Source of the DNA: a virus
Taxonomy: Duplodnaviria; Heunggongvirae; Uroviricota; Caudoviricetes
Reading direction: 5' to 3' (one strand)
DNA: 64,000 nucleotides
IMG/VR virus record: IMGVR_UViG_2718218133_000001
Both the position numbers and the translations under genes were made by a program. The notes beneath the pieces are model-generated. The model was not told the origin of the DNA, made no database searches, and saw only the letters and a program-made list of their open reading frames with translations. Shown piece by piece: positions 42,921 through 59,912 of this stretch (position 1 is the first letter of the stretch; the number at the start of each line of letters is the position of its first letter).

Positions 42921-43228
42921 CAATATACGATCTGGTCTACATGATCACCAAAATCATCGTCGTCGTCCTCATCGCCACCATCTACTGCTGGCCAATCAAC
43001 AAACCAGCCAGCGTAAAGATGCAGCGTTCGGAGAACATCACTTGCGGGAGCATCAAGGGTGTTAACGAATCCCATATAGCTATTGGGATTTGCCCCAGCT
43101 ATGGCTTCAGCGATCATGTCCTCGGTAATGTCACCGGAGATAATGCTTAAACGCCCGGAAACTTCTTCATTATCATCAAATTCGATAATGGCATCTCCAC
43201 CTAATGGCGCTGCGATTTTAATCTGCAT
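42920..43228 (-). CDS. hypothetical acidic protein
   Basis: 102-aa ORF downstream of the ddrB-position gene; DDDDD run. Confidence 0.35.
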   Translation of the reverse strand: MQIKIAAPLGGDAIIEFDDNEEVSGRLSIISGDITEDMIAEAIAGANPNSYMGFVNTLDAPASDVLRTLHLYAGWFVDWPAVDGGDEDDDDDFGDHVDQIVY

Positions 43229-46205
43229 TATTTAGCTCCTTTGCCACACCTAATAACAGTTCCAGCAATCCGTCACCATTCATCAGTGATGCGGCAGCGG
43301 CCTCTTTGTCATGATACAACTGAAGAGCCATAGAGAATACTTCCGTTGCTGACGTTTTGGAAATAGTCGGTGATTTCTGCCGAATTTTCCCGGTGTTACT
43401 TACTGAGGCTGGCGGGTATACCTTCGCCATATAAATATTACTCAATCGAGATCTGAAGCACCATTCAGGCTTGCCACGCCCACCGATATTGACGAAAGAT
43501 GGCTTATCCCCTTCAACATTGGCCTTCAGGAATGACCGGGCTTTCTCTAACAAACCAGGGTTACTGTACTCAAGATGATGACCCAGCTCGTGCCACAGTG
43601 CACTTGCATTTTCATCGTTCAAATTGACAGCAACAACACCATTTAGATTTGCATATGCCCTTCCCTGGTGGTGAACCACCTTTGATAAGGTCGATATTTT
43701 CCCGCCGGTCAGGCGATAAATATCAGCAAGTTCCTTGCGCAGGTCTATCCCACCATTCTGTCCAGCGCGGACTTCTTCCACTTCTTCTGTGATAAAAGAG
43801 TCGGCCCACTCAAGAGCTTTTTCTTCAGATACGGATGAGTTTGCGATCGCACTGTTCATGGCAGATAACACTTTCTCGTGGACCGAACCCATACTTCGCT
43901 GATTCATTTGCCAGCGTATCTGCGGGTTATATGAGAATCGCTTAAGTAGTTGGTCAAGCTGCTCAAGTTCTTCTTCACTGACATACTTTTTAGCCTCACC
44001 AATAATGCCAGGGAGAATATTGCCGTTAGGATTAAACGCTCGCGAAAGGAAGAGTTTCAGCGCCCCCATGCCCTCCGATGCTTCAATATCACCAATAACC
44101 CGGTTAACAATGGCCGCACTCTTCGGATTAGCATCCGCCAACGCTCTGGCTACGATTTGCAGGGACGATACGACCTCACGCTGCATATCAGTCCTGATCT
44201 CATCAATAAACTCTGGCGTTATGCCGTGCTCTTTAAGAATATCCCGGCCTTCCGCCGTTACCCCATCGATATCACCGACATGTTTATTAACACGACTTTG
44301 CAATGCCTTAAATGCCTTCAGAATTCCACGGGCATCATCCGCTTTACTAACGGCCTTCCTGAATGCTGGCAAGAAGTCTGAGTTAACCTCATTTTGTTGA
44401 TCGGCCCACTGAATGGAGGCTTCTTTCATCTCGTCCAGAGTCAGATCACCCAACGCGGTATGGTCTGTGAATATGAGCGACAACCTCTGAACCATTTCTG
44501 CCAATGGTGATGCCGAATGCGCCGCGCTAAGGAATGCTTTCACCCTGGTTGGGCGAATGGAAAACCAGTCAATAGCTGGTGGCATATCTCCGTTTTTTAT
44601 CGCCTGCGCTATCTCGTCAAAGCCATCGCGCCCAAGGGAGGATGCGTGATTTAACAAGCCGCGAAGTAACGAATTGCTGATACCGAATAATCGGCACCAT
44701 TTTTTCACGTCGGCAACAGGCATTCGAACAAAATGCGCAAGCACTTGTACAAGCTGTTCATCCTGGGGATCTGTGCGGGAAAGCAGCCTGATCAGATGAA
44801 TAATGTCTTTGATGCCGGATGCCCGATGTAATAGCAAACTGGTATACGGAGCAACACCGTTGTAACTACCGCCGGAAACGGACTCGAAAAGACCGCCGGA
44901 TATCCCTTGCATGCCTTCGTTTTCCAGTTCCTGAGACACCTGGCGAAGGATATCCTGTAACGACACATCGCCGCCGCCAAACATATCCCCCAGCGCCTGG
45001 CCCTGGTGCTGTAACTCATCATTGATACGTTGAGCCATCAACTTAAAGGCGGTGGCCATACGCTTCGCGCTACGGTTATTCGCGACGATGAACAACGCGA
45101 GTGCTTTCACTTCCGGGGCCGTTTCGCTGAACATATCCCCCTGAGCAATAACATCGGTAATATGCTGGCCTGACTCCTTCGATTGCCTTACCAGGTCTAC
45201 CGCATCTTTCAATGCCGCCAGCGCCTTTTTATCGAGGCTATCTGCTGTCTCAATGCCATCAACAATAGTTGTCACAGCCTGCTTGTGCGCTTCTCCTGAT
45301 AAAGCCTGCATCTGGACAAAATCATTGGCTGCCGCATTAAGCGCCGTCAGAACATTACGCATATCCGGATCAGGTTCTTCTGCAACCATCCTTACCAGGC
45401 GCGCATCCTTATATGCCTTGGCAAAGATCGCGTTTTGTATACGGTCTACAAGTTGCCGTGTTGGTCGCCCATCTTCAGTTACAAGGCCAGCCGCCTGTGT
45501 GGCACCAACTTGCGTCATAAATCCGCGAATAAACGCGTCATTACTGCGGCTAAGCAGATCTCCGCTTTCTGACGGGTTAAAAAGCGCCATCATCGCCGGT
45601 GTTATGCTGTCGGCATCAACAAAAGCTTTTTCACTGGCTGCCATTTCCTGAAGATCAGAAATATTTGAGTCCTTGGCAAACTGAACGCGGTCAACCTTAG
45701 TTAACCGGCGGCGCACCAGTACCGGAGCCGTCATTGATTCAACCTTTTCAGGAGGTATGCCGAATTCGGTCGCATGTTCAATCAGGTACTCACGATACCG
45801 ATCCGCATTGCCGTCCTGATAGGCTTTGATGATCCCCATGGTCCGTCCATTACCTGACTCAACGGCATTGTCCTCACCAATTATCGGCGCACCATGGCTG
45901 GATAAACCGGAATCAGTAAGCTGAGCTGGCCGCAAATCTTTGGATATCTGGTTAACCTGAAGAAGGCTGGATGCGCGGGTCCGGTCGCGCGGCTGAAGTT
46001 CCTGGGGATAGTCAGGATTAATTTTCCCATCCAGAGTATTGGATACCAAAAGAGCTGAGGCATCGACGATATCAAACGCTGTTTTTACCTCGTCTCCCTT
46101 CGCTGTCACCACATACGAAACCCGCCCATAATCGGGCAGGTTCTTTAGCAGCTCGATCAGCGTTTCTATGCTGGTGGCCATTACCACCTGATCGCTTAAG
46201 CTCAT
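43218..46205 (-). CDS. large dar-operon protein (DdrB-like by position and size)
   Basis: 995-aa ORF downstream of the darA- and ddrA-position genes. Confidence 0.55.
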   Translation of the reverse strand: MSLSDQVVMATSIETLIELLKNLPDYGRVSYVVTAKGDEVKTAFDIVDASALLVSNTLDGKINPDYPQELQPRDRTRASSLLQVNQISKDLRPAQLTDSGLSSHGAPIIGEDNAVESGNGRTMGIIKAYQDGNADRYREYLIEHATEFGIPPEKVESMTAPVLVRRRLTKVDRVQFAKDSNISDLQEMAASEKAFVDADSITPAMMALFNPSESGDLLSRSNDAFIRGFMTQVGATQAAGLVTEDGRPTRQLVDRIQNAIFAKAYKDARLVRMVAEEPDPDMRNVLTALNAAANDFVQMQALSGEAHKQAVTTIVDGIETADSLDKKALAALKDAVDLVRQSKESGQHITDVIAQGDMFSETAPEVKALALFIVANNRSAKRMATAFKLMAQRINDELQHQGQALGDMFGGGDVSLQDILRQVSQELENEGMQGISGGLFESVSGGSYNGVAPYTSLLLHRASGIKDIIHLIRLLSRTDPQDEQLVQVLAHFVRMPVADVKKWCRLFGISNSLLRGLLNHASSLGRDGFDEIAQAIKNGDMPPAIDWFSIRPTRVKAFLSAAHSASPLAEMVQRLSLIFTDHTALGDLTLDEMKEASIQWADQQNEVNSDFLPAFRKAVSKADDARGILKAFKALQSRVNKHVGDIDGVTAEGRDILKEHGITPEFIDEIRTDMQREVVSSLQIVARALADANPKSAAIVNRVIGDIEASEGMGALKLFLSRAFNPNGNILPGIIGEAKKYVSEEELEQLDQLLKRFSYNPQIRWQMNQRSMGSVHEKVLSAMNSAIANSSVSEEKALEWADSFITEEVEEVRAGQNGGIDLRKELADIYRLTGGKISTLSKVVHHQGRAYANLNGVVAVNLNDENASALWHELGHHLEYSNPGLLEKARSFLKANVEGDKPSFVNIGGRGKPEWCFRSRLSNIYMAKVYPPASVSNTGKIRQKSPTISKTSATEVFSMALQLYHDKEAAAASLMNGDGLLELLLGVAKELNNAD

Positions 46206-46217
46206 CCCTGTTACGCC

Positions 46218-46583
46218 TTATGCTGCCTCTTTAATGTTGGCGGCTATCCATGCCGCCGTGTGCTGTTTAACCTGGTCCAGGTCGATGTATGTGCCAACAT
46301 ATTGACTCAAATCCTGCAAGGTACCGATAAATGCATCGGTGCTCTGATCGACGAATTTATCAGCCAGGAAATCAGCAACCAGTTTTGGCACACCATCATG
46401 TACCGAAGGTTGTTTTTCCTCGCCACTACTGCCGCCGGACACACCGTACCCCATCTGTTGCATGATCTGGTCAATTTCATCGCTGATATCCAGCAACTCC
46501 ATGCCACTCGCGGTAGCCGCTTTGGACATCAGAGCATCCAACTTATCGCTGAGATCCATTAACTCAATAGCTGATAGTGTCAT
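46218..46583 (-). CDS. small dar-operon protein (DdrA-like by position and size)
   Basis: 121-aa ORF between the darA- and ddrB-position genes. Confidence 0.45.
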   Translation of the reverse strand: MTLSAIELMDLSDKLDALMSKAATASGMELLDISDEIDQIMQQMGYGVSGGSSGEEKQPSVHDGVPKLVADFLADKFVDQSTDAFIGTLQDLSQYVGTYIDLDQVKQHTAAWIAANIKEAA

Positions 46584-48499
46584 GCCGCTACCCCCGCTTT
46601 CTGGATTGCTACCAACAGATCAGCCAGGTGGCGAGCTGCGCCGTTAACCAGCTCTTCGTTTTCCTCAAAACGTCCGGCAGCCTGAAGGGCTGCAATCGCT
46701 TCCCGGACATTGCCCCGGGCGTTACGGATCTCCGCCATGTCAGTGCTTTGTATATCCATCACGTTATTGAGATATTCAATGGCTTTATTAGCCTCTGCAT
46801 CTGCTTCGCTAACCGTTTCATCAGGCTGTGCCGTGGCCGGTTCTGGCTGAGTAATCTCACCGACTTCGGCCTGCAATGCATTGATCATGCTCTGCACCAT
46901 TTTCTCGGTGCCAGCGCCCCCCGGAAACGCAATATTGGGGAAAGTTTTTTGAAACTGAGTTTTCAGCATTACGCGGAACTCGTCTGGTGAGCTGGTGGCC
47001 AGCTCCAGAGCTTTTTGTGCATATTTGCCAAACGGACCATTAGTAAGTGTCTTCGCCAGGAAGTCGAAAGAATCCTCGCGAGGCAATAACTTCAGGTCGT
47101 ACTCACTCATTTGCTGATCAGAAAGCGGGGTATCGTAAGTAGCAATGCCGTAGCGTGCATATTCATAATACGGGTCACCTTCATCAGGGCGCGGCAGAAT
47201 TGCTTTGTTACCTTCAGGTATTGCGCCAGGGGCCGCCGGACGCATTTGCAGGGCATATCGATATGCACCTACAGAGACTTCTGGTTCAGGCGAAGAGCTA
47301 CCGGTATCCTCCGCTGGTTCAGGTTCGACGTTTTCCGGTTTATGTTCTTCTGGTTGGACCAGGTATTCCGATACATTACCCGCTTTATAGGCTTTAAACA
47401 GCTTGCCGATCGCATCTGCCATGTCCACACCCTGTATGGATTTAGCCTTGATCATGTATACGCTGCCATCCGGATCGGTTAACTGGATATACCCTTCGCC
47501 GCCCCCAATGAATTGCTTCATTGATGCACCATTACTGAGCGTCACTTCCCCGTCCATATGCATACGATTTTTGATACTGGCAAGGCGATCCGTCAGCGCG
47601 CGAGAGTGCCCACCAGTCATCCCCGCTGGAGCAATGGTATCGCGCCCACCAGTGCGATTGAGCTGATCAATCTCCGTCTGCAAACGCTCATTCTCTTCAT
47701 AAAGAGAATCCGCTTCCGATGCAACAGCGTTAATTTTCTGCTCCAGATCTGCCTTCTGCCCTTCTACCGCTGCCACCTGATCCGCGAGGTCGCTCATGGC
47801 ATCCTCTTTCTGGTCACTGTCAGCCTGTAGTTGGGTTATTTCATCAACAAGGGCTTTTTTCTTCTTCTGCGCACGCTGGAATTTTGCCGAGTTTTTCTCT
47901 GCAAGGTTGGCAAGTTTCATGGTGACCTGCGCCAGCGTCATATCACGTCCACTCATCGGAGCAACGGTGTGAGTAACGTCTTTTTTATTCAGTAAGAACT
48001 GGAAAGCAACCAGCGTATCGCTATTGGTGATCCGGTTTTCCGCTGTCGGGCTATGAAACAGAATGCTGATAGTCTGACCATCACTGAGCGGAATAATGGC
48101 TGGCAAGACCGGCAGCCCGTTAACGTTACGTGCCCGGCCAATTTCAGCGCCGCCGATCGCGCGCGCGCCGCTCTGGGCCACATCCCCCGTTTTATCACTC
48201 CCCGCAGAGATTCCGGTACCATTCAGCTTCTGGTTCAATGCCCGGACAAATGCCTGCATGGTCCGGTGTAACTGCAAACGAGTAGAACTAATCGCCTCCA
48301 GTAAATCCGTAGCACACCAGTGGATCGGCGTGTCATAGAAGAACGTAGCCTCGATTTCCTCCAGGGTGTTGGATTCCGTCATCAGATAGCGGTCCTCACC
48401 GGCCATTAATGCGCGATATTCATCATCAGTCACTGGCGGGGGAAGCACGTCAAGCCCAGGCTTGATCGTCACCCCTTTATTGATATTGAACTGTTCCAT
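46580..48499 (-). CDS. darA: DarA-like antirestriction/capsid protein
   Basis: 639-aa ORF in the expected operon position after the hdf-position gene; central coiled-coil. Confidence 0.6.
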   Translation of the reverse strand: MEQFNINKGVTIKPGLDVLPPPVTDDEYRALMAGEDRYLMTESNTLEEIEATFFYDTPIHWCATDLLEAISSTRLQLHRTMQAFVRALNQKLNGTGISAGSDKTGDVAQSGARAIGGAEIGRARNVNGLPVLPAIIPLSDGQTISILFHSPTAENRITNSDTLVAFQFLLNKKDVTHTVAPMSGRDMTLAQVTMKLANLAEKNSAKFQRAQKKKKALVDEITQLQADSDQKEDAMSDLADQVAAVEGQKADLEQKINAVASEADSLYEENERLQTEIDQLNRTGGRDTIAPAGMTGGHSRALTDRLASIKNRMHMDGEVTLSNGASMKQFIGGGEGYIQLTDPDGSVYMIKAKSIQGVDMADAIGKLFKAYKAGNVSEYLVQPEEHKPENVEPEPAEDTGSSSPEPEVSVGAYRYALQMRPAAPGAIPEGNKAILPRPDEGDPYYEYARYGIATYDTPLSDQQMSEYDLKLLPREDSFDFLAKTLTNGPFGKYAQKALELATSSPDEFRVMLKTQFQKTFPNIAFPGGAGTEKMVQSMINALQAEVGEITQPEPATAQPDETVSEADAEANKAIEYLNNVMDIQSTDMAEIRNARGNVREAIAALQAAGRFEENEELVNGAARHLADLLVAIQKAGVAA

Positions 48500-48500
48500 G

Positions 48501-49112
48501 TTAATTTCCTGCTTTCAGTTGCTTAAGACGGCGTTTGAGTTCGCCATTTCGGGCCTTTTCGTTATTGAGTCGGCCTGTCTCCTTATCCAGCTTCGCCCGC
48601 AAATCAGTGATCTGCTGTTGATTGAAAGACACCGAGTTCTGCGCTGATTTATAAGCGGCAACCACCTGAGCATTCCGCTGTTTTGCCTCTTGCAGGCGCT
48701 GAAAGTTGGATTTTACTGCCGGTTTCTTGTCTACCGGATTGGCAACACGTTTCGCTTTGGCGATCAGTGAGTTCTGGAATTTTGCGGAGTTTTTGCGGGC
48801 CGCTTGCCCCATGACGGTACCAAGCGTCTTGATATCCGGCGATTGAGCGTTAGGAATAGCTTTTCCATTCAGCCTCACAGACGATATATCGCCAGTATCG
48901 TTTACCTGTATGGCAAGAATTTGTCCGTCGTTAAGAACCAGCTTTGCGGTTTTAACTTTAACGCCATCTTTCGTTGTTGCGCGGTTGCTGGAGTCAACCT
49001 CAATTACCGTAACACCGGTTTTATTGATCGCCGCGATAAGGGATTTCAGCCCCTTTTCATTAACCTGGTCAAAATCGACCGTTGCATACTTATTTTTCGT
49101 CATCTGACACAT
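48501..49112 (-). CDS. Hdf-like head morphogenesis protein (first gene of dar operon)
   Basis: 203-aa ORF directly upstream of darA; basic coiled-coil C-terminus. Confidence 0.5.
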   Translation of the reverse strand: MCQMTKNKYATVDFDQVNEKGLKSLIAAINKTGVTVIEVDSSNRATTKDGVKVKTAKLVLNDGQILAIQVNDTGDISSVRLNGKAIPNAQSPDIKTLGTVMGQAARKNSAKFQNSLIAKAKRVANPVDKKPAVKSNFQRLQEAKQRNAQVVAAYKSAQNSVSFNQQQITDLRAKLDKETGRLNNEKARNGELKRRLKQLKAGN

Positions 49113-49533
49113 CCTGTGCGAGATTTATTACGTAACTTCTGCGGATTTGCTGAGTAACAGGGAAAATCCGATACAACGGGTTAATGAACGAGTCGCCATG
49201 CGTAACCATGACGTTGAAATGCCACAGTCGCTCTCCTTTACCCATATATTCAGTGGGTATGTACAACCATTCACTGTTTTCGCCCTGTTCAGCCGACGTC
49301 AAACAACGTTGTTCGCCTTCAATCACTGTCGTCGGCTTCTGAACATCGCGGATCCAATATCTGACCGTTGCGCCGCGCAAAAACGGGAATTTAGACCGGT
49401 ATTTGAACGGCACCCGGATGAAACCCGGTTTAATTTCCACATCACCAAGTTCTAAATGCGTGATGTCCTTGCGTTTTAGCAAATAGCGATCGGCTAAGGC
49501 TAACGCAAGAACGCATACACCCCAGCCAATCAT
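49090..49533 (-). CDS. LydB-like antiholin-position protein
   Basis: 147-aa ORF overlapping the holin stop. Confidence 0.45.
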   Translation of the reverse strand: MIGWGVCVLALALADRYLLKRKDITHLELGDVEIKPGFIRVPFKYRSKFPFLRGATVRYWIRDVQKPTTVIEGEQRCLTSAEQGENSEWLYIPTEYMGKGERLWHFNVMVTHGDSFINPLYRIFPVTQQIRRSYVINLAQDVSDDEK

Positions 49534-49859
49534 TTCCCGCCTCCCTTTTTCACCAAACTTGTAAGAACATTCAGAATGCTATCGATATTCACTCGTTTCA
49601 TCCCTGAAATCACCTCATGACCGTTATTGCTGGCTATCGTTACCATTAAGTACGTAATTGATAACTCCCAGCCCTCGTGTTGCCCCAATAGGTACGCCAC
49701 CGCGCCAGCTGTCACTGCAACAAAGATCTCCGTAACCAATCCCAACAAATTGCCAGACTGGCGACCGTCTCGGACATCCATCAGGAACGTGCCTATCCCA
49801 CCAATTACTGAAAGCAGGAGCGCAATAGCAACTGGAGCTAATTCCTGTGTGTCAAGCAC
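49530..49859 (-). CDS. holin (LydA-like)
   Basis: 109 aa; hydrophobic segments; charged C-terminus. Confidence 0.6.
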   Translation of the reverse strand: MLDTQELAPVAIALLLSVIGGIGTFLMDVRDGRQSGNLLGLVTEIFVAVTAGAVAYLLGQHEGWELSITYLMVTIASNNGHEVISGMKRVNIDSILNVLTSLVKKGGGK

Positions 49860-49933
49860 AAGTTCCCTCCTACGTTGTCAGGAGGTAATGGTATGCAAAG
49901 TAACTTCTCAACCGGTTATGTTGCATAAGAGAC

Positions 49934-50197
49934 TTACCTATTCAACCGACTTTTGGAACCTTCAATAATAAGCCTGCTATTGGCGCTGAAAATAAGAACC
50001 ATGCAGCTCTGAAGGCTTTCATTCATATCCTTATATTCCGCGAGATACATGCCAATAAAGCCAGCAAGTACGGCGGAAATACATTCGGCCAGCAATTTCT
50101 TGCATGAAGACTCGTAACGGTTTTCACATAGCCCACTCAAATACGAATACACCCCACCAAGAAGGGATAACATCACGATATGTACATAAAATGTCAT
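49934..50197 (-). CDS. small membrane protein (possible second holin-like gene)
   Basis: 87 aa with two hydrophobic stretches. Confidence 0.4.
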   Translation of the reverse strand: MTFYVHIVMLSLLGGVYSYLSGLCENRYESSCKKLLAECISAVLAGFIGMYLAEYKDMNESLQSCMVLIFSANSRLIIEGSKSRLNR

Positions 50198-50324
50198 TTT
50201 TTACCTATACAACAGTAAGTTGAACAACATCTGAGAACGGTATGCACTTTGTGATTTCCACACACACTGGTTTTGTTAATTAAAACCTGTAGCTTGCAAT
50301 AAATAACGATAGTGGGCAGAAAAT

Positions 50325-50510
50325 ATGCTAATAGGCTATGTACGCATATAGACAAATGAACAAAACACAGCTATGCAGTGAAAAGCACTTGAAAGCGCAG
50401 GATGTGAGCTAATTTTTGCGAATAAGGCGAGCAGCAAAAAGGCTGGGCACCCTGGGTTAAAAAAGGTTCTGCGTATGCTTTCCAGAGGTGATACCCTAGT
50501 CTCGGGCTAG
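50325..50510 (+). pseudogene. degenerate 5' remnant of a cin/gin-type serine invertase gene
   Basis: Translation MLIGYVRI*TNEQNTAMQ*KALESAGCELIFANKASSKKAGHPGLKKVLRMLSRGDTLV matches the N-terminus of Cin/Gin invertases but has in-frame TAG (codon 9, where the catalytic Ser is expected) and TGA (codon 19), then diverges. Confidence 0.6.
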
Positions 50511-50632
50511 GGACAACATTTCGAGGACAGTTTTCATTAGCGGTCAGCAGGCGCTAGATACATCGAATTGATGTGCCGCGCGATAAATGTACCTATTCTA
50601 TCAAGATAAATTACACCGACGCGGCATTAGAA

Positions 50633-51205
50633 TTACAGCTCAGATTGAGTTTGGCGCTTCTCTACAGGATGATAACGATAAATCGTCGATACACCGATAT
50701 CGTAAATAATTGCCAACTGTTTCCTGCTGTAGCCATTTTCGATCAACCTCGCTATTTGCTCATGTTGTTCTTTTGTCAACTTCGGGCGACGTCCGCCAAT
50801 GCGTCCCTGTTCGCGTGCAGCTGCCAGTCCGGCCAGTGTTCTCTCAACAATTAATTCACGTTCCATTTCTGCTAAAGCCCCCATGACGTGAAAAAAGAAA
50901 CGCCCCATGGGTGTTGATGTGTCAATACTGTCTGTCAGACTACGGAAATTAACACCTTTTTCCCGCAACTCCTCTATAAGCGTGATAAGGTGTTTCATAC
51001 TTCTGCCAAGCCTATCCAGCTTCCAGACAACCAGCGTATCTCCTTCTGATAACGTTCTGAGCAGCTTTTTCAAGCCTGGTCTGGCTGACTTTGTTCCGCT
51101 TATTTTATCTTCAAAAATCAGTTCACATCCTGCGCAGTTCAGTGCATTTCTTTGTAAATCTGTGTTTTGGTCATTTGTTGACACACGAATGTAGCCAATT
51201 TGCAT
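50633..51205 (-). CDS. cin: Cin/Min-family serine DNA invertase
   Basis: From the ATG at 51203-51205: MQIGYIRVSTNDQNTDLQRNAL..; resolvase catalytic domain plus C-terminal HTH; adjacent to the first crossover site. Confidence 0.9.
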   Translation of the reverse strand: MQIGYIRVSTNDQNTDLQRNALNCAGCELIFEDKISGTKSARPGLKKLLRTLSEGDTLVVWKLDRLGRSMKHLITLIEELREKGVNFRSLTDSIDTSTPMGRFFFHVMGALAEMERELIVERTLAGLAAAREQGRIGGRRPKLTKEQHEQIARLIENGYSRKQLAIIYDIGVSTIYRYHPVEKRQTQSEL

Positions 51206-51259
51206 GAAAAACAACCTCTTTGTTTAGTTAAAAATACATCGTTGGTATAGGTAGGGATT

Positions 51260-51285
51260 AAGACTAAAACGTTGGTTTGGGGGAA
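51260..51285 (+). repeat. invertase crossover site 1 (hix/gix-like)
   Basis: ..aaaacg-TT-ggtttgggggaa; resembles the hix core AAAACC-AA-GGTTTTT; conserved half-site GGTTTGGGGGAA. Confidence 0.55.
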
Positions 51286-51752
51286 GGCTCTGCATTGCCT
51301 GTTGGTGTACCTGTTCCATGGCCCTCAGCCACACCACCAACGGGGTGGCTAAAATGTAACGGAGCAGCATTTTCTTCTGAAAAGTACCCAAATCTGGCAA
51401 AGGTTTACCCAACGTTAAAATTACCTGATTTACGCGGTGAGTTTATCCGTGGTTGGGATGATGGGCGCGGGGTGGATGCGGGACGTGCTTTATTGAGCAT
51501 TCAGACAGGAATGCTGGAAAAGCACCGACATATTGTTGTAGCCAATGATGGTTACGACACAAAAGATGAATGGGAGCTGGCGACAATTTTCAAAAAAACA
51601 TACACACAAGGACGGGGCTTGATGCCTCAAATACAGGAGGGAATTTGATTCCATCACCGACACTTCATTCTCGAGGGAGTATTGGTAATACTGGCGGGAG
51701 TGAAACCCGTCCACGAAATATCGCATTTAATTACATCGTAAGGGCGGCATAA
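51277..51752 (+). pseudogene. tail-fibre variable cassette 1 (frameshifted)
   Basis: Conserved N-terminal module GEGSALPVGVPVPWPSATPPTGWLKCNGAAFSSE.. in frame 1 (track ORF 51277..51648); conserved C-terminal ETRPRNIAFNYIVRAA only in another frame (track ORF 51570..51752). Confidence 0.45.
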
Positions 51753-51771
51753 AAACGTTGGTTTGGGGGAA
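51746..51771 (+). repeat. invertase crossover site 2
   Basis: Same core aaaacg-TT-ggtttgggggaa. Confidence 0.55.
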
Positions 51772-52260
51772 GGCTCTGCATTGCCTGTTGGCGTACCTGT
51801 TCCGTGGCCATCAGCCACACCTCCAACGGGGTGGCTGAAATGCAATGGTGCAGCATTTTCTTCTGAAAAGTACCCAAATCTGGCAAAGGCTTATCCCACC
51901 AATAAATTACCGGATTTACGGGGAGAATTTATTCGTGGCTGGGATGATGGGCGTGGCATTGATCCTAGACGTGCCTTGCTAAGTCTTCAGAATGGAGGAG
52001 TGGAATCACACACCCACCAAGGGCAGCTCTTCAGAGTTAGTGATTATCGTACAAATGAAATACCAGCATCAGAAGTTATGGGAAGAAACTATCTTGCAAG
52101 CCTGACGCCGGGTGCTAATAGCCCACTTGATTTTGATGATTATCCTGTAGCTCTTATTCCAAATGGATATTTTGTCGGGAATCAGAGAACAACAGCATAT
52201 GGGATAAATGAAACCCGTCCACGGAATATTGCATTTAATTACATCGTAAGGGCGGCATAA
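51763..52260 (+). CDS. tail-fibre variable cassette 2 (promoterless 3' gene segment)
   Basis: Starts in-frame inside the crossover site with no ATG; conserved N- and C-terminal modules, unique middle. Confidence 0.6.
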   Translation: MGEGSALPVGVPVPWPSATPPTGWLKCNGAAFSSEKYPNLAKAYPTNKLPDLRGEFIRGWDDGRGIDPRRALLSLQNGGVESHTHQGQLFRVSDYRTNEIPASEVMGRNYLASLTPGANSPLDFDDYPVALIPNGYFVGNQRTTAYGINETRPRNIAFNYIVRAA

Positions 52261-52279
52261 AAACGTTGGTTTGGGGGAA
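52254..52279 (+). repeat. invertase crossover site 3
   Basis: Same core. Confidence 0.55.
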
Positions 52280-52699
52280 GGCTCTGCACTGCCTGTTGGT
52301 GTGCCCGTTCCGTGGCCCTTAGAAACACCACCAACGGGCTGGCTAAAATGTAACGGAGCAGCATTTTCTTCTGAAATGTATCCCAAACTGGCAAAAGCCT
52401 ACCCCACCAATAAATTACCGGATTTACGCGGTGAATTTATCCGTGGCTGGGATGATGGGCGCGGGATTGATGCGGGACGTACCCTGCTTTCAGGGCAGGA
52501 TGGTACAAGTTTTTCTCATTACGGAGGTAATTTCGACATTGGGTCTGGTCATTCAATCAATAACTATGACCAAATTGTTTCTAACCAACCAGGATTTTCC
52601 CGTTTTTCATTTGCAGGGCCTTCACGAGGTGATGGGGTTAATTATGTAACCATTCGTCCTCGTAACATTGCGTTTAATTATATCGTAAGGGCGGCATGA
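52271..52699 (+). CDS. tail-fibre variable cassette 3
   Basis: As cassette 2; different central segment. Confidence 0.6.
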   Translation: MGEGSALPVGVPVPWPLETPPTGWLKCNGAAFSSEMYPKLAKAYPTNKLPDLRGEFIRGWDDGRGIDAGRTLLSGQDGTSFSHYGGNFDIGSGHSINNYDQIVSNQPGFSRFSFAGPSRGDGVNYVTIRPRNIAFNYIVRAA

Positions 52700-52718
52700 A
52701 AACGTTGGTTTGGGAGAA
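52693..52718 (+). repeat. invertase crossover site 4 (variant half-site GGTTTGGGAGAA)
   Basis: Same core with one substitution. Confidence 0.5.
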
Positions 52719-53207
52719 GGCTCTGCATTACCTGTTGGTGTCCCTGTTCCGTGGCCTTCAGCCACTCCGCCAACAGGCTGGCTGAAATGCAACGGTGCGG
52801 CTTTTTCTGCTGAAGAATACCCGGAACTGGCAAAGGCTTACCCGACAAATAAATTGCCTGATTTACGTGGTGAGTTCATTCGTGGCTGGGATGACGGGCG
52901 CGGGATTGATCCAGGTCGCTCTATTTTAAGCGAGCAAGGATATGCAACGGAGGATCATGCTCACGGATTACCGTCAAAATCAACCGTAGCAACTGACAGC
53001 TCAATTAATTTCTACTTTGACGAGGCATGGGCTACTAGTGGTAATACGGGAGTTATCAGATGGGGGAACACAAGCGATGCAGGATTGCCAGCCCCTAATT
53101 ATGGAACTTTTAAAACATATAAACAGTCCGTAGCTAATTTAGGTACTGCTGGCTTAGAAACCCGCCCTCGTAATATTGCATTTAATTATATTGTGAGGGC
53201 GGATTAA
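52710..53207 (+). CDS. tail-fibre variable cassette 4
   Basis: As cassette 2; different central segment. Confidence 0.6.
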   Translation: MGEGSALPVGVPVPWPSATPPTGWLKCNGAAFSAEEYPELAKAYPTNKLPDLRGEFIRGWDDGRGIDPGRSILSEQGYATEDHAHGLPSKSTVATDSSINFYFDEAWATSGNTGVIRWGNTSDAGLPAPNYGTFKTYKQSVANLGTAGLETRPRNIAFNYIVRAD

Positions 53208-53212
53208 TTATA

Positions 53213-53824
53213 TCAACTGGCTGTAGAAAGTTGTTTTTCAGGCCAGTTGAGATCTGGTGCCGTGGTTAAATCCATCGCGTTCAGCTCGTCTATATAATCT
53301 AGCACGGAGTTAAGCTGCGTGGTTTCTGCCTGCGTCAACTTCCGTCCAGCCCGTAATTTCAACTGAATCAGACTAATGGAATCCATCGCAGTATCAATCA
53401 ATGACTGACGTTTTGTTTCTGCTGCCTCTACAGCTGCACTATGTTGAGCCTCAGTATCAACCACCCATTTCTCTCCATCCCATTTGTCGTATGGTGTTAG
53501 CGGGGCGATAGTGGTTGTATTTTCCGGATAGTCACCCAACACCGTGATTTCTTCGGGATTCCCTGTGTCAATGCTATAGACAGTTTCGCCACGATGATCT
53601 GGCACATACTCCCATGAACTTAAATCCTCTGAACGGAGAATCGCATAACCTGCTTTATGTGAGCCTGGAGCATCCAAACAAGAATGTGCCGGAATACCAA
53701 CGCCAACAGCAAGATATTCAGTTGATGCAGAAATATATTCCCGATTACCACCATCATAGTTATAAACGATAATGTTTCCTGCCTGTATGGCTATAAGTTC
53801 GCTATTTAATATCGCATTATCCAT
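53213..53824 (-). CDS. U: tail fibre assembly protein (U-like)
   Basis: 203-aa ORF whose ATG overlaps the cassette 5 stop (TAATG coupling); Tfa-like composition. Confidence 0.7.
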   Translation of the reverse strand: MDNAILNSELIAIQAGNIIVYNYDGGNREYISASTEYLAVGVGIPAHSCLDAPGSHKAGYAILRSEDLSSWEYVPDHRGETVYSIDTGNPEEITVLGDYPENTTTIAPLTPYDKWDGEKWVVDTEAQHSAAVEAAETKRQSLIDTAMDSISLIQLKLRAGRKLTQAETTQLNSVLDYIDELNAMDLTTAPDLNWPEKQLSTAS

Positions 53825-54282
53825 TATGCTGCTCTCACAATATAATTGAAGGCAATGTTACGTGGGCGGGTTTCATTCCCCCCAGATAACTCCGTTCTGT
53901 ATTGACTGGTAAATTTACCATTAATCGCTCCTTCTTGGACGGCGTTATCTGTCGACAACAGGCTATCCCCCCCTCTGTCATTTGGCACCAATACCGTGTT
54001 ATCCCACGCGTCCCATGACCGAATATTATGATAATGACTTCCTGTTAACCACCCCTGTATGCTTAAGATGACCCTTCCCGCATCCACACCTCGCCCATCA
54101 TCCCAACCACGGATAAACTCACCGCGTAAATCAGGTAATTTTAACGTTGGGTAAACCTTTGCCAGATTTGGGTACTTTTCAGAAGAAAATGCTGCGCCAT
54201 TGCATTTCAGCCACCCCGTTGGAGGTGTGGCTGATGGCCACGGAACGGGCACGCCAACGGGCAGTGCAGAGCCTTCCCCCAA
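53824..54282 (-). CDS. tail-fibre variable cassette 5 (minus orientation, coupled to U)
   Basis: Same conserved N- and C-terminal modules on the minus strand, starting inside crossover site 5. Confidence 0.6.
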   Translation of the reverse strand: MGEGSALPVGVPVPWPSATPPTGWLKCNGAAFSSEKYPNLAKVYPTLKLPDLRGEFIRGWDDGRGVDAGRVILSIQGWLTGSHYHNIRSWDAWDNTVLVPNDRGGDSLLSTDNAVQEGAINGKFTSQYRTELSGGNETRPRNIAFNYIVRAA

Positions 54283-54299
54283 ACCAACGTTTTATGCCG
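54274..54299 (-). repeat. invertase crossover site 5 (inverted orientation)
   Basis: Reverse complement of the core: ttcccccaaacc-AA-cgtttt. Confidence 0.55.
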
Positions 54300-54717
54300 C
54301 CCTTACGATGTAATTAAATGCAATGTTACGAGGACGATGGTTACATATTACGACCATCAATCGTGAATGTCCAGTATAATGAAAAACTCAATAATTCCGT
54401 CTTAGGCTGTAGATAATACTTGTCATAGTTATGATTGAATGACCAGACTCAATGTCGAAATTACCTCCGTAAAGAAAACAATATGTCTGATCCTGCCATT
54501 CTGAATAGCAGTACGTCCAGATCAATCCCCGCCCATCATCCCAGCCGCGATAAATTCACCCGTAAATCCGGTAATTTATTGTGGGTAGCCTTTGCCAGTT
54601 TGGGATACTTTCAGAAGAAAATGCTGCACCGTTGCATTTCAGCCACCCCGTTGGAGGTGTGGCTGATGGCCACGGAACGGGCACGCCAACAGGCAGTGCA
54701 GAGCCTTCCCCCAAACC
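54300..54717 (-). pseudogene. degenerate variable cassette currently joined to the S constant region
   Basis: Paralogue of cassette 3 with multiple single-base deletions; reading frame from the constant part stops at 54556 after ..AAFSSE-SIPNWQRLPTINYRIYG. Confidence 0.55.
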
Positions 54718-57135
54718 AAGGTAATTAAGAACGCTCTGAATACTGGGCTTACTAAGAATTGCACGTCCAACACTTGTCAGTGCAGTTAACGCGGCACGAT
54801 CAACCCCTGTGAAATAAGGGAGTTTATCTGCTGCGGTAGCTAGTGCCGCTAGAGCAGTGAGCGTAGCGTCTGCCGCTTGCTTTCCATTAGCCAAATCATA
54901 TGCAGCCTTGACAGCTTTCGGTGTAGCGGCCAGCACTTCAGACGTGCTGTTAGTGGCACTACTGAGCTGAGTGATGCCTTTCGCTGTCAATGAAGCTGTT
55001 GGCACACCAGTAATCTGATTCCAGGGATGTGTATGACTGGATGGTGCTTTTTCGGCTGCTAGATCGTATGCAGCTTTAACCGCTTTTGGCGTTGCAGCTA
55101 ATGTTTCAGAAGTGCTGTTGGTGTCGCTACTGAGCTGAACTATCCCTTTTTGTGTCGTGGTTGCATCCTGGGCTGTATACTTCCCGTTAGCCAGGTCATA
55201 TGCAGCCTTGACAGCTTTCGGTGTGGCGGCCAGCACTTCAGACGTGCTGTTAGTGGCACTACTGAGCTGAGTGATGCCTTTCGCTGTCAATGAAGCTGTT
55301 GGCACACCAGTGATCTGATTCCAGGGATGTGTATGACTGGATGGTGCCTTTCCGGCTGCTAGATCGTATGCAGCTTTAACCGCTTTTGGCGTTGCAGCTA
55401 ATGTTTCAGAAGTGCTGTTGGTGTCGCTACTGAGCTGAACTATCCCTTTTTGTGTCGTGGTTGCATCCTGGGCTGTATACTTCCCGTTAGCCAGGTCATA
55501 TGCAGCCTTGACAGCTTTCGGTGTGGCGGCCAGCACTTCAGACGTGCTGTTAGTGGCACTACTGAGCTGAGTGATGCCTTTCGCTGTCAATGAAGCTGTT
55601 GGCACACCAGTGATCTGATTCCAGGGATGTGTATGACTGGATGGTGCCTTTCCGGCTGCTAGATCGTATGCAGCTTTAACTGCTTTTGGCGTTGCAGCTA
55701 ATGTTTCAGAAGTGCTGTTGGTGTCGCTACTGAGCTGAACTATCCCTTTTTGTGTCGTGGTTGCATCCTGGGCTGTATACTTCCCGTTAGCCAGGTCATA
55801 TGCAGCCTTGACAGCTTTCGGTGTGGCGGCCAGCACTTCAGACGTGCTGTTAGTGGCACTACTGAGCTGAGTGATGCCTTTCGCTGTCAATGAAGCTGTT
55901 GGCACACCAGTGATCTGATTCCAGGGATGTGTATGACTGGATGGTGCCTTTCCGGCTGCTAGATCGTATGCAGCTTTAACCGCTTTTGGCGTTGCAGCTA
56001 ATGTTTCAGAAGTGCTGTTGGTGTCGCTACTGAGCTGAACTATCCCTTTTTGTGTCGTGGTTGCATCCTGGGCTGTATACTTCCCGTTAGCCAGGTCATA
56101 TGCAGCCTTGACAGCTTTCGGTGTGGCGGCCAGCACTTCAGACGTGCTGTTAGTGGCACTACTGAGCTGAGTGATGCCTTTCGCTGTCAATGAAGCTGTT
56201 GGCACACCAGTGATCTGATTCCAGGGATGTGTATGACTGGATGGTGCCTTTCCGGCTGCTAGATCGTATGCAGCTTTAACCGCTTTTGGCGTTGCAGCTA
56301 ATGTTTCAGAAGTGCTGTTGGTGTCGCTACTGAGCTGAACTATCCCTTTTTGTGTCGTGGTTGCATCCTGGGCCGTATACTTCCCGTTAGCCAGGTCATA
56401 TGCAGCCTTGACAGCTTTCGGTGTGGCGGCCAGCACTTCGGACGTGCTGTTAGTAGCACTGCTGAGCTGAACTAATCCCTTTTGCGTTGTGCTTGCATCC
56501 TGCGCCGTATACTTGCTTTTCGCCAGATCGTAGGCTTTTTTAACTGCCAGCGAACTTGCAGCGACATCACTTCTGGTACTGGTTACAGAGTCGGAAATTT
56601 CAATGCCTATCGTGAGATCGATGCGGTCGGATACATCTATCATTTCCTGAGTAATAGCAGATACGCCAGCAGGGATATTCACCGTACAAACAAGCAGTTC
56701 CCCATCTCCTAACTGATATGAATCGGTATAGGTTCTGGCAACAAATTCAGCTGCATGAATATGTGACGCGGTATTCACCTGATAGGTATCTTCTCCAAGA
56801 AGGTATCTTCCCTTCAGCACAATTGCATATTTCTTGCCTGCGTTAAGTGCAAGAGAGATATCCTTACGATGCTGAATAGTTACCTGGTAGAATTCACCAA
56901 TATCCACTGACGCCGCGCCAGCGGTTTTATCTCCATCCACTGAGGTGATTAACAGGTTCATCCCACCGCCAGGCTTAGGCAAGAAACCAGCATAAAATCC
57001 CGGGTCAACAATTCCCCTGAATTTTCGGTTTAGAGCGGCTGACAGATATGGTTCGTGGTATTGCACATCAGCCACCAGAGCCAACGACTCGGGTGATGGG
57101 TAAGTAACCGATGTAACAACTGTAACGTCATTCAT
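54556..57135 (-). CDS. S: tail fibre protein S, constant part plus fused degenerate cassette
   Basis: Likely start MNDVTVVTSV (the track ORF extends to 57222); about five 100-aa repeats with HTHPWNQITGVP motifs; ends in the crossover-site-encoded LGEGSALPVG. Confidence 0.8.
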   Translation of the reverse strand: MNDVTVVTSVTYPSPESLALVADVQYHEPYLSAALNRKFRGIVDPGFYAGFLPKPGGGMNLLITSVDGDKTAGAASVDIGEFYQVTIQHRKDISLALNAGKKYAIVLKGRYLLGEDTYQVNTASHIHAAEFVARTYTDSYQLGDGELLVCTVNIPAGVSAITQEMIDVSDRIDLTIGIEISDSVTSTRSDVAASSLAVKKAYDLAKSKYTAQDASTTQKGLVQLSSATNSTSEVLAATPKAVKAAYDLANGKYTAQDATTTQKGIVQLSSDTNSTSETLAATPKAVKAAYDLAAGKAPSSHTHPWNQITGVPTASLTAKGITQLSSATNSTSEVLAATPKAVKAAYDLANGKYTAQDATTTQKGIVQLSSDTNSTSETLAATPKAVKAAYDLAAGKAPSSHTHPWNQITGVPTASLTAKGITQLSSATNSTSEVLAATPKAVKAAYDLANGKYTAQDATTTQKGIVQLSSDTNSTSETLAATPKAVKAAYDLAAGKAPSSHTHPWNQITGVPTASLTAKGITQLSSATNSTSEVLAATPKAVKAAYDLANGKYTAQDATTTQKGIVQLSSDTNSTSETLAATPKAVKAAYDLAAGKAPSSHTHPWNQITGVPTASLTAKGITQLSSATNSTSEVLAATPKAVKAAYDLANGKYTAQDATTTQKGIVQLSSDTNSTSETLAATPKAVKAAYDLAAEKAPSSHTHPWNQITGVPTASLTAKGITQLSSATNSTSEVLAATPKAVKAAYDLANGKQAADATLTALAALATAADKLPYFTGVDRAALTALTSVGRAILSKPSIQSVLNYLGLGEGSALPVGVPVPWPSATPPTGWLKCNGAAFSSESIPNWQRLPTINYRIYG
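54706..54731 (-). repeat. invertase crossover site 6 at the 3' end of the S constant region
   Basis: ttcccccaaacc-AA-ggtaatta; left half-site differs from the cassette sites. Confidence 0.55.
54880..56470. repeat. tandem array of about 5.3 x 300-bp near-identical coding repeats inside S
   Basis: The 60-bp lines at 55201, 55501, 55801 and 56101 are identical or differ by a single base (the 55501 line has an extra T-to-C); the 54901 copy is slightly diverged. Confidence 0.85.
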
Positions 57136-57146
57136 CAAGCATATCC

Positions 57147-57581
57147 TTATGCTGTAGTCGAGTTTATGGCCATAACTGCGGTATATGTTTTGCCCACATA
57201 CAGCGAGTCTTCCTGGACACAAATAATGGCGATTGGCTTATTCTCGTTATCCAGAACAACCAGAGTGTTGAATGGGTAGTTTTTCCCTTCCTGCAACTGA
57301 CTTTGATCAAGGTCCATTCGGACAGTAATTATCCCGCCTGAGTAGGTTGGGACGAGGTTGATGGTGCAAAATTGACTGGTCAGTTCTGCCAGATCGAAAG
57401 CCTTTGGCAGTTCTCCAATCTCATAAGTGCCATCTCCTTTCTTAGTAACCAGTGAACTGGTACCGAAAACGGCCTTGCTGATTAAAAATCGAGAGCCTTT
57501 GTTAATGGACGATTCAGCGCGCCGCTGATAGTAATAGTCCAACAACTGACTCTTATAGAGGTTTGTTGAGACGTCAGACAT
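57147..57581 (-). CDS. tail-fibre-region protein (P1 R position)
   Basis: 144-aa ORF immediately upstream of S. Confidence 0.45.
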   Translation of the reverse strand: MSDVSTNLYKSQLLDYYYQRRAESSINKGSRFLISKAVFGTSSLVTKKGDGTYEIGELPKAFDLAELTSQFCTINLVPTYSGGIITVRMDLDQSQLQEGKNYPFNTLVVLDNENKPIAIICVQEDSLYVGKTYTAVMAINSTTA

Positions 57582-57631
57582 GATTTTCCCTAATCAATGT
57601 TGTGAAGCCTCATTGTAAGATAAGTAACTTG

Positions 57632-57656
57632 TCACCCCGCCCTGCGGACGGGGTGA
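57632..57656 (-). terminator. GC-rich hairpin (weak terminator-like)
   Basis: caccccgcc-ctgcg-gacggggtg; no strong U-run. Confidence 0.3.
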
Positions 57657-57659
57657 TTG

Positions 57660-58379
57660 TCACGCATCGCTATCCAACAGCAAATCATCTGCGCGGGTGC
57701 GATCAAACGTAGGCGTTGCTTTCACAATAGTGCCACCAGGCGTTGCGGTGATCGGGGCGCTAATCGACGTAACTCCAGTAAGCGAAGTTGTATCCGAAGT
57801 TTCAAACCAGCAGAATGCTTTTTCGGTATCAGAAATCTCGTTCAAAGTGATCATGTCGGCCTGTTCATTTACAACAACCGACAAATAGAGCGTAAGCCCA
57901 TCAAACACTATATGCAGTGGCAGTAGAGGCTTTACGAACTGATTAAACTTTCTGAGAATTTCTTCTGTAATTGCGGACTGATCTATCGTTCCAGTAATAC
58001 CCATTGTCCGGGCCAGGTCGTTTATGGGAATACTGATCATTCCTCTGGAAGTCAGAAACATCTCGCCGAATGTGCCGCCGGTGGTTTCCAGTGTGCTTTC
58101 TGGAATCAGGACCGTACCATAGGGATGACGTTCAAAGTCCACCGGAGCATATATGGGATCCCATAAAACCGATATACCGTTAAATTCGCGATAAATTGTC
58201 TGGTTTATAGGGCGTTCAGTGCCCTTAAAATGGATCTCATCAAACCGCTGTTGTAGCAACATCGGAACGGAAGATGAATTCGACGTTCTGATAGTAAAAA
58301 ACTGGCCAAGTTCATTTGTCCTGGTCTCCAGATCCTCCTTGCTCATGGAGAAAATAGACTTCCGGTTGGTAGTCAACAA
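57660..58379 (-). CDS. baseplate-region structural protein (P1 gene 16 position)
   Basis: 239-aa ORF in the tail/baseplate block. Confidence 0.4.
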   Translation of the reverse strand: MLTTNRKSIFSMSKEDLETRTNELGQFFTIRTSNSSSVPMLLQQRFDEIHFKGTERPINQTIYREFNGISVLWDPIYAPVDFERHPYGTVLIPESTLETTGGTFGEMFLTSRGMISIPINDLARTMGITGTIDQSAITEEILRKFNQFVKPLLPLHIVFDGLTLYLSVVVNEQADMITLNEISDTEKAFCWFETSDTTSLTGVTSISAPITATPGGTIVKATPTFDRTRADDLLLDSDA

Positions 58380-58478
58380 AGGTGTCCATCATTGACTGAA
58401 CCAAATCAGCCAATGATTTATAAAGTAATGACTTTTGCTTAGCTGATGTAAGCCGGTTATTAAACCAGGAACGCTGCA

Positions 58479-59912
58479 TCACTCCTCCTCATACGAAATA
58501 TTAAAGGTGGAGTTTTCTGTATCCAGATAAACGAAATCGTAAAAGCCGTTGGACTCATTCCACTCGACAAATTCCAGATAAAAGTCGCGGAAATAGCCCA
58601 GCGTTTCGATAAACGCCCAAACGTCTTTTTTCTTAATCAGGATGTACTTTCCGACGCGGTTCGGATCAAAGAAAGTTGAGTCGCGCCCAAATTTTGTTTC
58701 CAGTGCCGACTTCAGCTCATCGGTCACGTTCTCAATGGTCAGGCTTGCCGATATTCGCCCGGTGATGGTGATCTTAAAGGGTAGTTTTCTGACCTCTTTA
58801 TACGAAAATTTCTTGTTCAACTCATTCGGCACCTTCTTAAAAGCGGCCAGGATCATTTCCTCAAGCTCTGACTGACTTTTATTCGGATGCCATCCTGAAA
58901 TAAATATCTTATTGATATTCCGAACATTATAAGCACCATCTAATTTCTCTTGCTGGCCTTCGCCCCATGCCTTTACCCAGGACAGTCCCGGGATGTTACG
59001 CACCAGAAAATACGTATAGTCCCCGCCCCATACGACCTGATCATCATAGGCAAGGTAATATTGTGCACGATTACGTGTGATCTCCGTTGTTTCGGCATCG
59101 GTACCTGCGGTTATGGGTGTCGTTGTCTTAACTGAAATCAAATTAGCTAAATTAGCCGCAGAATCGACAGGCGTCAGATTTTGGCCAGCAACCAAGGTTA
59201 TATCTCCGTTGGTGCACCATACCTTAAGTGTAATGGTCGAGCCTTCTGGCGGTATTTGCCCAATTAGCCCATCACCGAATCGAACCCCCAACTGCTCGGA
59301 TGGTTTATAAAACTCAACGTAGACCTGGCTTTTACTACCGGCTAACCGGAACATAGTGCTGGAAGACCACTGCGTGGTCTTACCATCGGTCGTCACGAAT
59401 ACTTCCAGCTTATAGCAGACAGCAGTGAGAGCCTTTGATAACACGACTTCCAGAAATTCTTTGGCTGCCGTAACGGTATATGTCACCTCCTGGATTTCCA
59501 ACTGTGCCACTTCTACCGTACCGGTGCCGTCAACCAACCTGCATACATCCATAGTCATGTAAGGGTACTGGTCGTCAGATATTAAAGGCATATTTTTGGG
59601 GATTACCGCTGGGGCATCTTCACTTGTGGCGGTGATCTCAATCATCCCCGATGACGGTGTTGGCTTGGTACCAACGTAACTATTCGTTTCTGCCGCTGCC
59701 AGGATAGAGGAACGCCGCGTCGCGGTCGATATAAAGCCTTCAGCCAGCGCCGCATCGGCATACTGAAAGCACCTGTAGACAATCTGGGTAATAAACAATG
59801 TCAGCATCGAGACAAATTGAGAGCCGACAAACTTCGACCAGAATGAATCTTTCTCGACAAGCTCTTCAAACTCTGCACGAATACTGTCTTTAGTCGGTGT
59901 TGTTTTACTCAT
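58479..59912 (-). CDS. baseplate protein (BplA/gpJ-like)
   Basis: 477-aa ORF upstream of the gp25-like gene. Confidence 0.45.
   Translation of the reverse strand: MSKTTPTKDSIRAEFEELVEKDSFWSKFVGSQFVSMLTLFITQIVYRCFQYADAALAEGFISTATRRSSILAAAETNSYVGTKPTPSSGMIEITATSEDAPAVIPKNMPLISDDQYPYMTMDVCRLVDGTGTVEVAQLEIQEVTYTVTAAKEFLEVVLSKALTAVCYKLEVFVTTDGKTTQWSSSTMFRLAGSKSQVYVEFYKPSEQLGVRFGDGLIGQIPPEGSTITLKVWCTNGDITLVAGQNLTPVDSAANLANLISVKTTTPITAGTDAETTEITRNRAQYYLAYDDQVVWGGDYTYFLVRNIPGLSWVKAWGEGQQEKLDGAYNVRNINKIFISGWHPNKSQSELEEMILAAFKKVPNELNKKFSYKEVRKLPFKITITGRISASLTIENVTDELKSALETKFGRDSTFFDPNRVGKYILIKKKDVWAFIETLGYFRDFYLEFVEWNESNGFYDFVYLDTENSTFNISYEEE

Follow-up and report, generated by a model that had tools for sequence, protein, structure and literature searches.

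A stop-interrupted 5' remnant of a cin-type invertase gene beside the Min-type invertase module of a P1-like phage-plasmid

The window (the whole 64,000-nucleotide [nt] stretch of DNA that was analyzed) is a P1-like phage-plasmid, and in it the 5' end of a second invertase gene faces the intact invertase gene across a short spacer. We are highly confident that this region is a nonfunctional fossil, consisting of the leader and the first 177 nt, at the promoter end, of a P1-type cin gene, left behind when a Min module replaced what lay beyond. The remnant is a real, ordinary, and already known pseudogene scar. We present it as a tidy example of mosaic evolution and as a note on annotation; it is not a discovery, and it raises no new biological question.

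The cin remnant and its lesions

Alignment to P1 cin, Pfam, and BLASTP define a cin coding remnant of codons 1 to 59 at positions 50325 to 50501 on the plus strand. Translation of the frame from the ATG at 50325 to 50327 gives MLIGYVRI*TNEQNTAMQ*KALESAGCELIFANKASSKKAGHPGLKKVLRMLSRGDTLVSG*, in which the asterisks are stops. Codon 9 is TAG (50349 to 50351); at this place P1 has TCA, encoding Ser9, which is the catalytic nucleophile of the Cin/Gin serine invertases. Codon 19 is TGA (50379 to 50381), and the P1 codon is CGA. The similarity to invertases stops after codon 59, at 50501, and the third in-frame stop, a TAG at 50508 to 50510, is past the end of the P1 homology. A first-pass annotation, made from the letters of the DNA, had described an ATG followed by the stop-interrupted N terminus of a Cin/Gin-type invertase, with one stop where the catalytic serine is expected, a second stop ten codons later, and a break after about 60 codons. 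The translation and the alignment to P1 Cin bear out this description in every part.

The product of the remnant can be aligned without gaps to residues 1 to 59 of P1 Cin (AAQ14003.1), with 49 of the 59 amino acids identical (83%; BLASTP, E = 1e-34). It also matches the Pfam Resolvase family (PF00239) over profile positions 2 to 68 of 145, with a score of 37.5 bits (E = 3e-9) against a gathering cutoff of 23.3 bits. At the nucleotide level, megablast aligned 50236 to 50501 with P1 31570 to 31836 at 89.9% identity over 267 bp, with one gap (E = 6e-92). Most public annotations leave the stretch unannotated, as would be expected of plain intergenic DNA with an incidental coding resemblance, but that reading is refuted by these alignments, and we give it a negligible probability. 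The similarity is not limited to a few residues, since 59 codons plus a 114-bp leader match P1; in addition, the equivalent stretch of plasmid pB20159_2 has been called a recombinase pseudogene by PGAP.

We compared the first 177 nt of the invertase genes with each other. The remnant matches P1 cin at 158 of the 177 positions (89%) but matches the intact neighboring invertase gene at only 119 (67%); the corresponding values for e14 pin and Mu gin are 118 and 113. The intact neighbor shares 128 of 177 nt with P1 cin and 144 of 177 nt with e14 pin, and 55 of 59 amino acids with the N terminus of the e14 protein. By these alignments the remnant is cin-type, the intact gene is pin/min-type, and the remnant is not a partial copy of its neighbor. 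The first-pass annotation had placed the remnant nearer than the intact gene to P1 Cin, and had asked for both to be aligned with P1 cin and Mu gin; on this point it was correct.

We then considered what an active serine invertase of this family has. The remnant retains homology to the N-terminal catalytic domain of the resolvases. However, the catalytic serine is not in an open frame, because codon 9 is TAG, and the full catalytic domain plus C-terminal helix-turn-helix (HTH) domain (∼185 to 195 amino acids in all) is reduced to homology that goes only to codon 59. The internal two-site Fis-dependent enhancer of such a gene likewise appears to be reduced to a single Fis-like site (see below). 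A pseudogene, in contrast, is recognized by homology combined with lesions that are fixed among relatives, and the lesions of the remnant are fixed in 22 loci.

By manual count, 19 substitutions separate the remnant from P1 cin, 11 of which are nonsynonymous or nonsense and 8 of which are synonymous, giving a rough dN/dS of ∼0.45 from only these 19 changes. A dN/dS below 1 is expected if the divergence partly predates inactivation, but so small a number of substitutions does not discriminate between the models. The substitutions are consistent with a mix of divergence before inactivation and decay after it, although they are too few for a formal test.

Colinearity with P1 and the match to p15B

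The backbone to the left of the remnant is that of P1. According to blastn, window positions 42922 to 50501 are colinear with P1 24246 to 31836, and the block ends exactly at cin nt 177. It includes ddrB, ddrA, darA, hdf, lydB, lydA, and lydC, all on the minus strand (43218 to 50197) and in the P1 gene order. The last of these, the holin-like gene lydC (49934 to 50197, minus strand; placed by the open reading frame [ORF] list and the P1 annotation), is transcribed away from the remnant, as its P1 counterpart is from cin, and is 71 to 86% identical to that counterpart in 100-nt bins. In the P1 annotation, leftward-transcribed lydC is followed by the cin promoter region and by rightward-transcribed cin, whose 3' end overlaps the cixL site; next come the C segment and S. 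Thus, the remnant is in the same place and the same orientation as P1 cin, adjoining lydC, and its 59 codons and 114-bp leader are homologous to the beginning of that gene. Unlike P1, the window has no cin DNA past nt 177, and so has no HTH domain, no cixL, and none of the remaining catalytic domain.

The first P1-colinear block after the substitution (56389 to 61744, matching P1 37095 to 42467 at 95.8% by blastn) begins inside the tail-fiber gene S. The 5.9 kb between 50501 and 56389 therefore stands in the place of cin nt 178 to 561, the C segment, and part of S. This insert contains a Min/Pin-type invertase gene in the opposite orientation, tail-fiber C-terminal cassettes, and six crossover sites. 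It had been proposed in the first-pass annotation that an ancestral cin was displaced by the multicassette module, and the position and orientation of the remnant, together with the breakpoints relative to P1, support that proposal. The distance from the end of the lydC start codon (50197) to the stop of the invertase gene (50633) is 435 bp and is free of long ORFs, in agreement with the 430-bp intergenic region given earlier; the remnant, on the plus strand, and the invertase gene, on the minus strand, are convergent and thus do face each other, as had been claimed.

The intact gene, at 50633 to 51205 on the minus strand, encodes a Min/Pin-type serine invertase of 190 amino acids when read from its ATG; there is also an upstream TTG at 51214. 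The protein has both the Pfam Resolvase domain (E = 2e-51) and HTH_7, and has exactly the sequence of an old UniProt entry named "DNA-invertase" (UniRef Q05517_ECOLX). As in Mu and e14, the gene is transcribed away from the invertible DNA. The multicassette invertible region, delimited by a pattern search and by the cassettes in the ORF list, extends from 51266 to 54725. Its crossover sites are at 51266, 51752, 52260, and 52699 on the plus strand and at 54293 and 54725 on the minus strand; the pattern search with the 25-bp site sequence gave these 6 matches, with 0 expected by chance.

Two side observations can be added here. In gene S (54556 to 57222, minus strand), a 300-bp unit is repeated in tandem 5.3 times (54880 to 56470), and the copies, with 98% identity, encode five near-identical 100-amino-acid repeats; the equivalent place in P1 has only short a/b repeated elements. 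In phage vB_EcoM-813R1 (ON470617.2), the stump region of which is identical to that of the window, the Min-type invertase gene (2936 to 3507) has been split in the annotation into two overlapping CDSs, "Hin1" and "Hin2"; the split points to a frameshift or a sequencing error in the deposited genome.

The colinear block is not uniform in its identity to P1. At ∼49900, between lydA and lydC, the mosaic has a sharp boundary, past which identity to P1 drops from 100% to 71 to 91% over 600 bp. Identity to P1 is 99 to 100% in lydA and lydB but only 71 to 91% in the patch from ∼49900 to 50501, which includes lydC and the remnant. From this contrast it follows that the patch has a history different from that of the backbone, and that what was displaced was a diverged allele of cin and not P1's own. 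The same contrast is the one point in favor of the reading that the stump copies part of the resident min or arrived from a donor together with the Min module. We regard this reading as most improbable. The remnant shares 89% of its nucleotides with P1 cin and only 67% with min, and both its leader and the adjoining lydC are P1-type and in the P1 order. Furthermore, copies of the Min-like module in chromosomes have no stump, and in another plasmid lineage the same module adjoins a different cin stump.

Remnant and substitution can both be recognized in the prior record of plasmid p15B of E. coli 15T- (GenBank X62121). The P1 GenBank record (AF234172) carries notes that refer to p15B, under the locus name ECP15BG. 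In these notes, p15B nt 7147 to 7408 match P1 31570 to 31832, i.e., the cin leader and 5' end, at 89% with one gap; nt 7483 to 7638 match lydC at 84%; and nt 7728 to 8294 match lydA and lydB at 99%. A match to the Cin enhancer, at nt 6463 to 6533 (83%), is inside min, and nt 1 to 1712 match P1 37152 to 38867, in the S/R region, at 96%. The window has the same P1 start coordinate, the same identity, the same single gap, and the same point of resumption in S. The order of the parts is also common to the two: lydA and lydB, lydC, the stump, and min with its own enhancer match. The elements by which a p15B-type locus can be recognized, a stump, a convergent Min gene, a six-site region, and the resumption of P1 homology in S, are all present in the window. 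The window locus thus appears to be the p15B locus; identity in every base, including both stops, is presumed from the matching alignment statistics.

The truncated 5' part of an invertase gene was reportedly described beside min by Iida et al. (1990, Mol Microbiol 4:991), and Min was reportedly interpreted by Sandmeier et al. (1992, J Bacteriol 174:3936) as a substitution of a Cin-like system in ancestral p15B, with the ends of the substitution mapped. Although text searches of the literature for the pseudogene by name returned nothing relevant, we consider both the remnant and the substitution as already known on the basis of the p15B notes in the P1 GenBank record and of these papers. A further link to p15B is provided by plasmid pJIE250-3: Venturini et al. 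2019 (PMC6906374) give 98.5% identity between its invertase and Min of p15B. We found that the stump region of pJIE250-3 is identical to that of the window.

Leader, enhancer relic, and spacer

A relic of the cin upstream region and leader, at 50211 to 50324 on the plus strand, was located by alignment to P1. It spans the positions of the P2cin and P1cin promoters and of the Shine-Dalgarno sequence, and the 114 bp upstream of the remnant's ATG are by homology the P1 cin leader. With a more sensitive alignment, the homology to P1 is unbroken across 50211 to 50501, at 87% identity. P1cin and P2cin are promoters predicted in the P1 GenBank record. At the -10 position of P1cin the window has TAAAAC and P1 has TAAAAT; at that of P2cin the window has CAACAT and P1 has TATCAT. 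A consensus scan of 50150 to 51350 found no promoter-like site.

Within the remnant, cin nt 19 to 90 (50343 to 50414, plus strand) correspond to the recombinational enhancer annotated in P1 at 31678 to 31749. This relic differs from P1 at 10 of its 72 positions. Its identity to P1 (86%) is lower than that of the next 87 nt (90%), and it is the most diverged part of the remnant; the enhancer part is thus not preferentially conserved relative to P1. We scored Fis-like sites as 15-mers with a degenerate Fis consensus based on the literature on these enhancers. The cin, min, pin, and gin genes each have two such sites, centered at nt 30 and nt 78 and thus 48 bp apart, and both Fis sites are needed in the Hin, Gin, and Cin enhancers. 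In the remnant the site at nt 78 is unchanged and the site at nt 30 has been destroyed by the change that created the TAG. The enhancer-like pair of min is its own. Among 12 window-type variants there were 0 variable sites in the enhancer relic and 4 in the next 87 nt; these numbers are too small to indicate constraint, and they are no evidence for neutrality either.

These results bear on the question of whether the stump has been co-opted, either as a second Fis-dependent enhancer for Min inversion or as a promoter for an antisense RNA into min. The remnant does span what the P1 annotation gives as the Cin enhancer and still has the Fis-like site at nt 78, no more than 131 bp separate it from min, which it faces, and its variation across well over a hundred plasmids is small. 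Nevertheless, we consider co-option to be very unlikely. The second Fis-like site, 48 bp away and common to four functional genes, is gone; no part of the remnant has diverged more from P1 than the enhancer stretch; the two predicted -10 hexamers are altered at conserved positions, and the scan found no promoter. In addition, the stumps of other lineages vary in state and in length, from 52 to 307 nt, and min already has an enhancer-like pair of sites. That the stump is active in any such way, with its Fis-like site or a weak promoter affecting Min inversion, is accordingly a reading to which we give little credence.

The P1 homology ends at 50501, and homology to the flank of the module in pB20159_2 begins at ∼50514. 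Between them, at 50502 to 50513, is a junction filler that holds the third in-frame stop. The DNA from 50514 to 50632 is the 3' flank of the Min module and is common to a second plasmid lineage; its right half is also found in the chromosome of E. coli ATCC 43896, in a prophage remnant by rcsC, where it lies directly 3' of a Min-like invertase gene that has no cin stump beside it. Because the same flank is 3' of a Min-like invertase gene in this stump-free prophage, the flank belongs to the incoming module, whereas the stump is part of the recipient backbone.

We considered two other origins for the spacer (50502 to 50632) and rejected both. The first was further decayed invertase sequence: on both strands, local alignments of the spacer to the 3' parts of cin, min, pin, and gin were no better than those of shuffled sequence, and its six-frame translation was blank. 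The second was the intergenic DNA between pin and mcrA of e14, to which there was no significant match; the only part of the spacer that recurs elsewhere is a hairpin. This imperfect 54-nt hairpin (50572 to 50625) is just past the min stop codon and is also 3' of Min-like invertase genes in chromosomal prophages (e.g., that by rcsC in ATCC 43896). Its folding energy was not significant (z = -1.7), and it has no U-run; it could act as a weak terminator or be no more than a palindrome. A promoter/terminator arrangement for antisense regulation was also considered and rejected, given the lack of a promoter-like site and a hairpin that is not significant and has no U-run.

Distribution of cin stumps and history of the locus

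The region between lydC and min is widespread. Some 146 plasmids in PLSDB contain at least 80% of 50198 to 50640, and among the 456 PLSDB records with a match to this stretch, identity was ≥99% in 106 and 95 to 99% in 41. The spacer was present in 171 of 5,426 complete E. coli genomes, almost always on plasmids. With a conserved spacer motif we fetched 23 IMG/VR contigs and 1 GTDB contig. Twenty-two of the fetched loci were window-type, and counting the window there were 12 distinct sequences. Both nonsense codons and the same break were present in all 22; the remnant is thus shared by related plasmids, which the first-pass annotation had suggested searching.

By megablast, PLSDB contained no intact cin gene closer to the stump than P1's, the best intact genes being 89.9% identical. 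The only closer match was itself a stump, that of pTB502, at 92.1%. Stumps in several other plasmids (pB20159_2, pTB502, p1_020032, pYLMB49b, and p_unnamed2 of A1_181) are likewise the 5' end of cin beside the lyd genes with a different tail-fiber module on the right, but they have other endpoints (52, 212 or 217, 234, and 307 nt versus 177 nt) and other lesions. The stump of pTB502, cin nt 1 to 234, has no early stops and is beside a different convergent invertase gene. Those of p1_020032 and pYLMB49b, nt 1 to 212 or 217, are beside a tail-fiber module with no annotated invertase gene, and in the plasmid of an Alaskan gull isolate only cin nt 1 to 52 are left. Truncated cin genes have also been described in pSvP1 and pTZ20_1P (Venturini et al. 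2019, PMC6906374). From these stumps of differing length in several P1-like plasmids, the 5' end of cin can be seen as a recurrent scar of tail-fiber module exchange. In the 5-kb stretch examined to the right of the stump, p1_020032, A1_181 p_unnamed2, and pYLMB49b have no annotated invertase gene, which suggests that the host-range switch has been lost in these plasmids.

The most informative comparison is with pB20159_2 and one IMG/VR contig, which have the same Min module as the window (95.8% identity over 683 nt). Their stump, which is the one that PGAP annotated as a pseudogene, comprises cin nt 1 to 307, is ∼80% identical to that of the window, and has frameshifts, but its Ser9 codon is kept. 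The flank of the Min module begins 13 to 18 nt past the end of both stumps, the one of 177 nt and the one of 307 nt. A single replacement does not fully explain one module end beside two stumps of different length. The shared end could reflect one replacement followed by deletion and exchange of flanks, or two insertions with a fixed module end. It could also mean that the Min module travels among P1-like backbones by a site-defined mechanism, in place of a single ancestral replacement, a reading that seems to us quite improbable.

Our preferred reading, that the region is a fossil left by replacement with the Min module, would entail the following history. A Min-type module would have taken the place of the remainder of cin, of the two-state C segment, and of part of S, bringing with it a Pin-like invertase gene in the opposite orientation and six crossover sites. 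Truncation would have killed the stump first; the two nonsense mutations, the promoter changes, and the loss of one Fis site would have come later. The longer stumps of other lineages do not have the two early stops, and therefore the nonsense mutations are probably later than the truncation, i.e., the two stops in the window are probably secondary decay of a gene that was already truncated. The stump would now be inert and would persist because nothing selects for its removal. Both this order of events and the stump's lack of function are what we infer from the homology, breakpoints, lesions, and fixation observed.

As a marker of the modular evolution of P1-like phage-plasmids, the stump is clean: it marks the exact site at which the two-state host-range switch of Cin and the C segment gave way to the six-site, multicassette Min switch, and it shows that the point at which this junction area was cut varies among lineages. 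In annotation, the stretch should be labeled a recombinase pseudogene instead of intergenic DNA or short ORFs. The stump can also be used for typing p15B-like tail-fiber modules in surveys of plasmids.

One window-type locus has been altered on its other side. In IMGVR_UViG_2541047595_000008 the stump is of the window type, and the lydC side has been replaced to the left of the equivalent of window position ∼50240 by what is presumably a Tn903/aph(3')-Ia flank, which suggests that a resistance element inserted at the leader of the stump.
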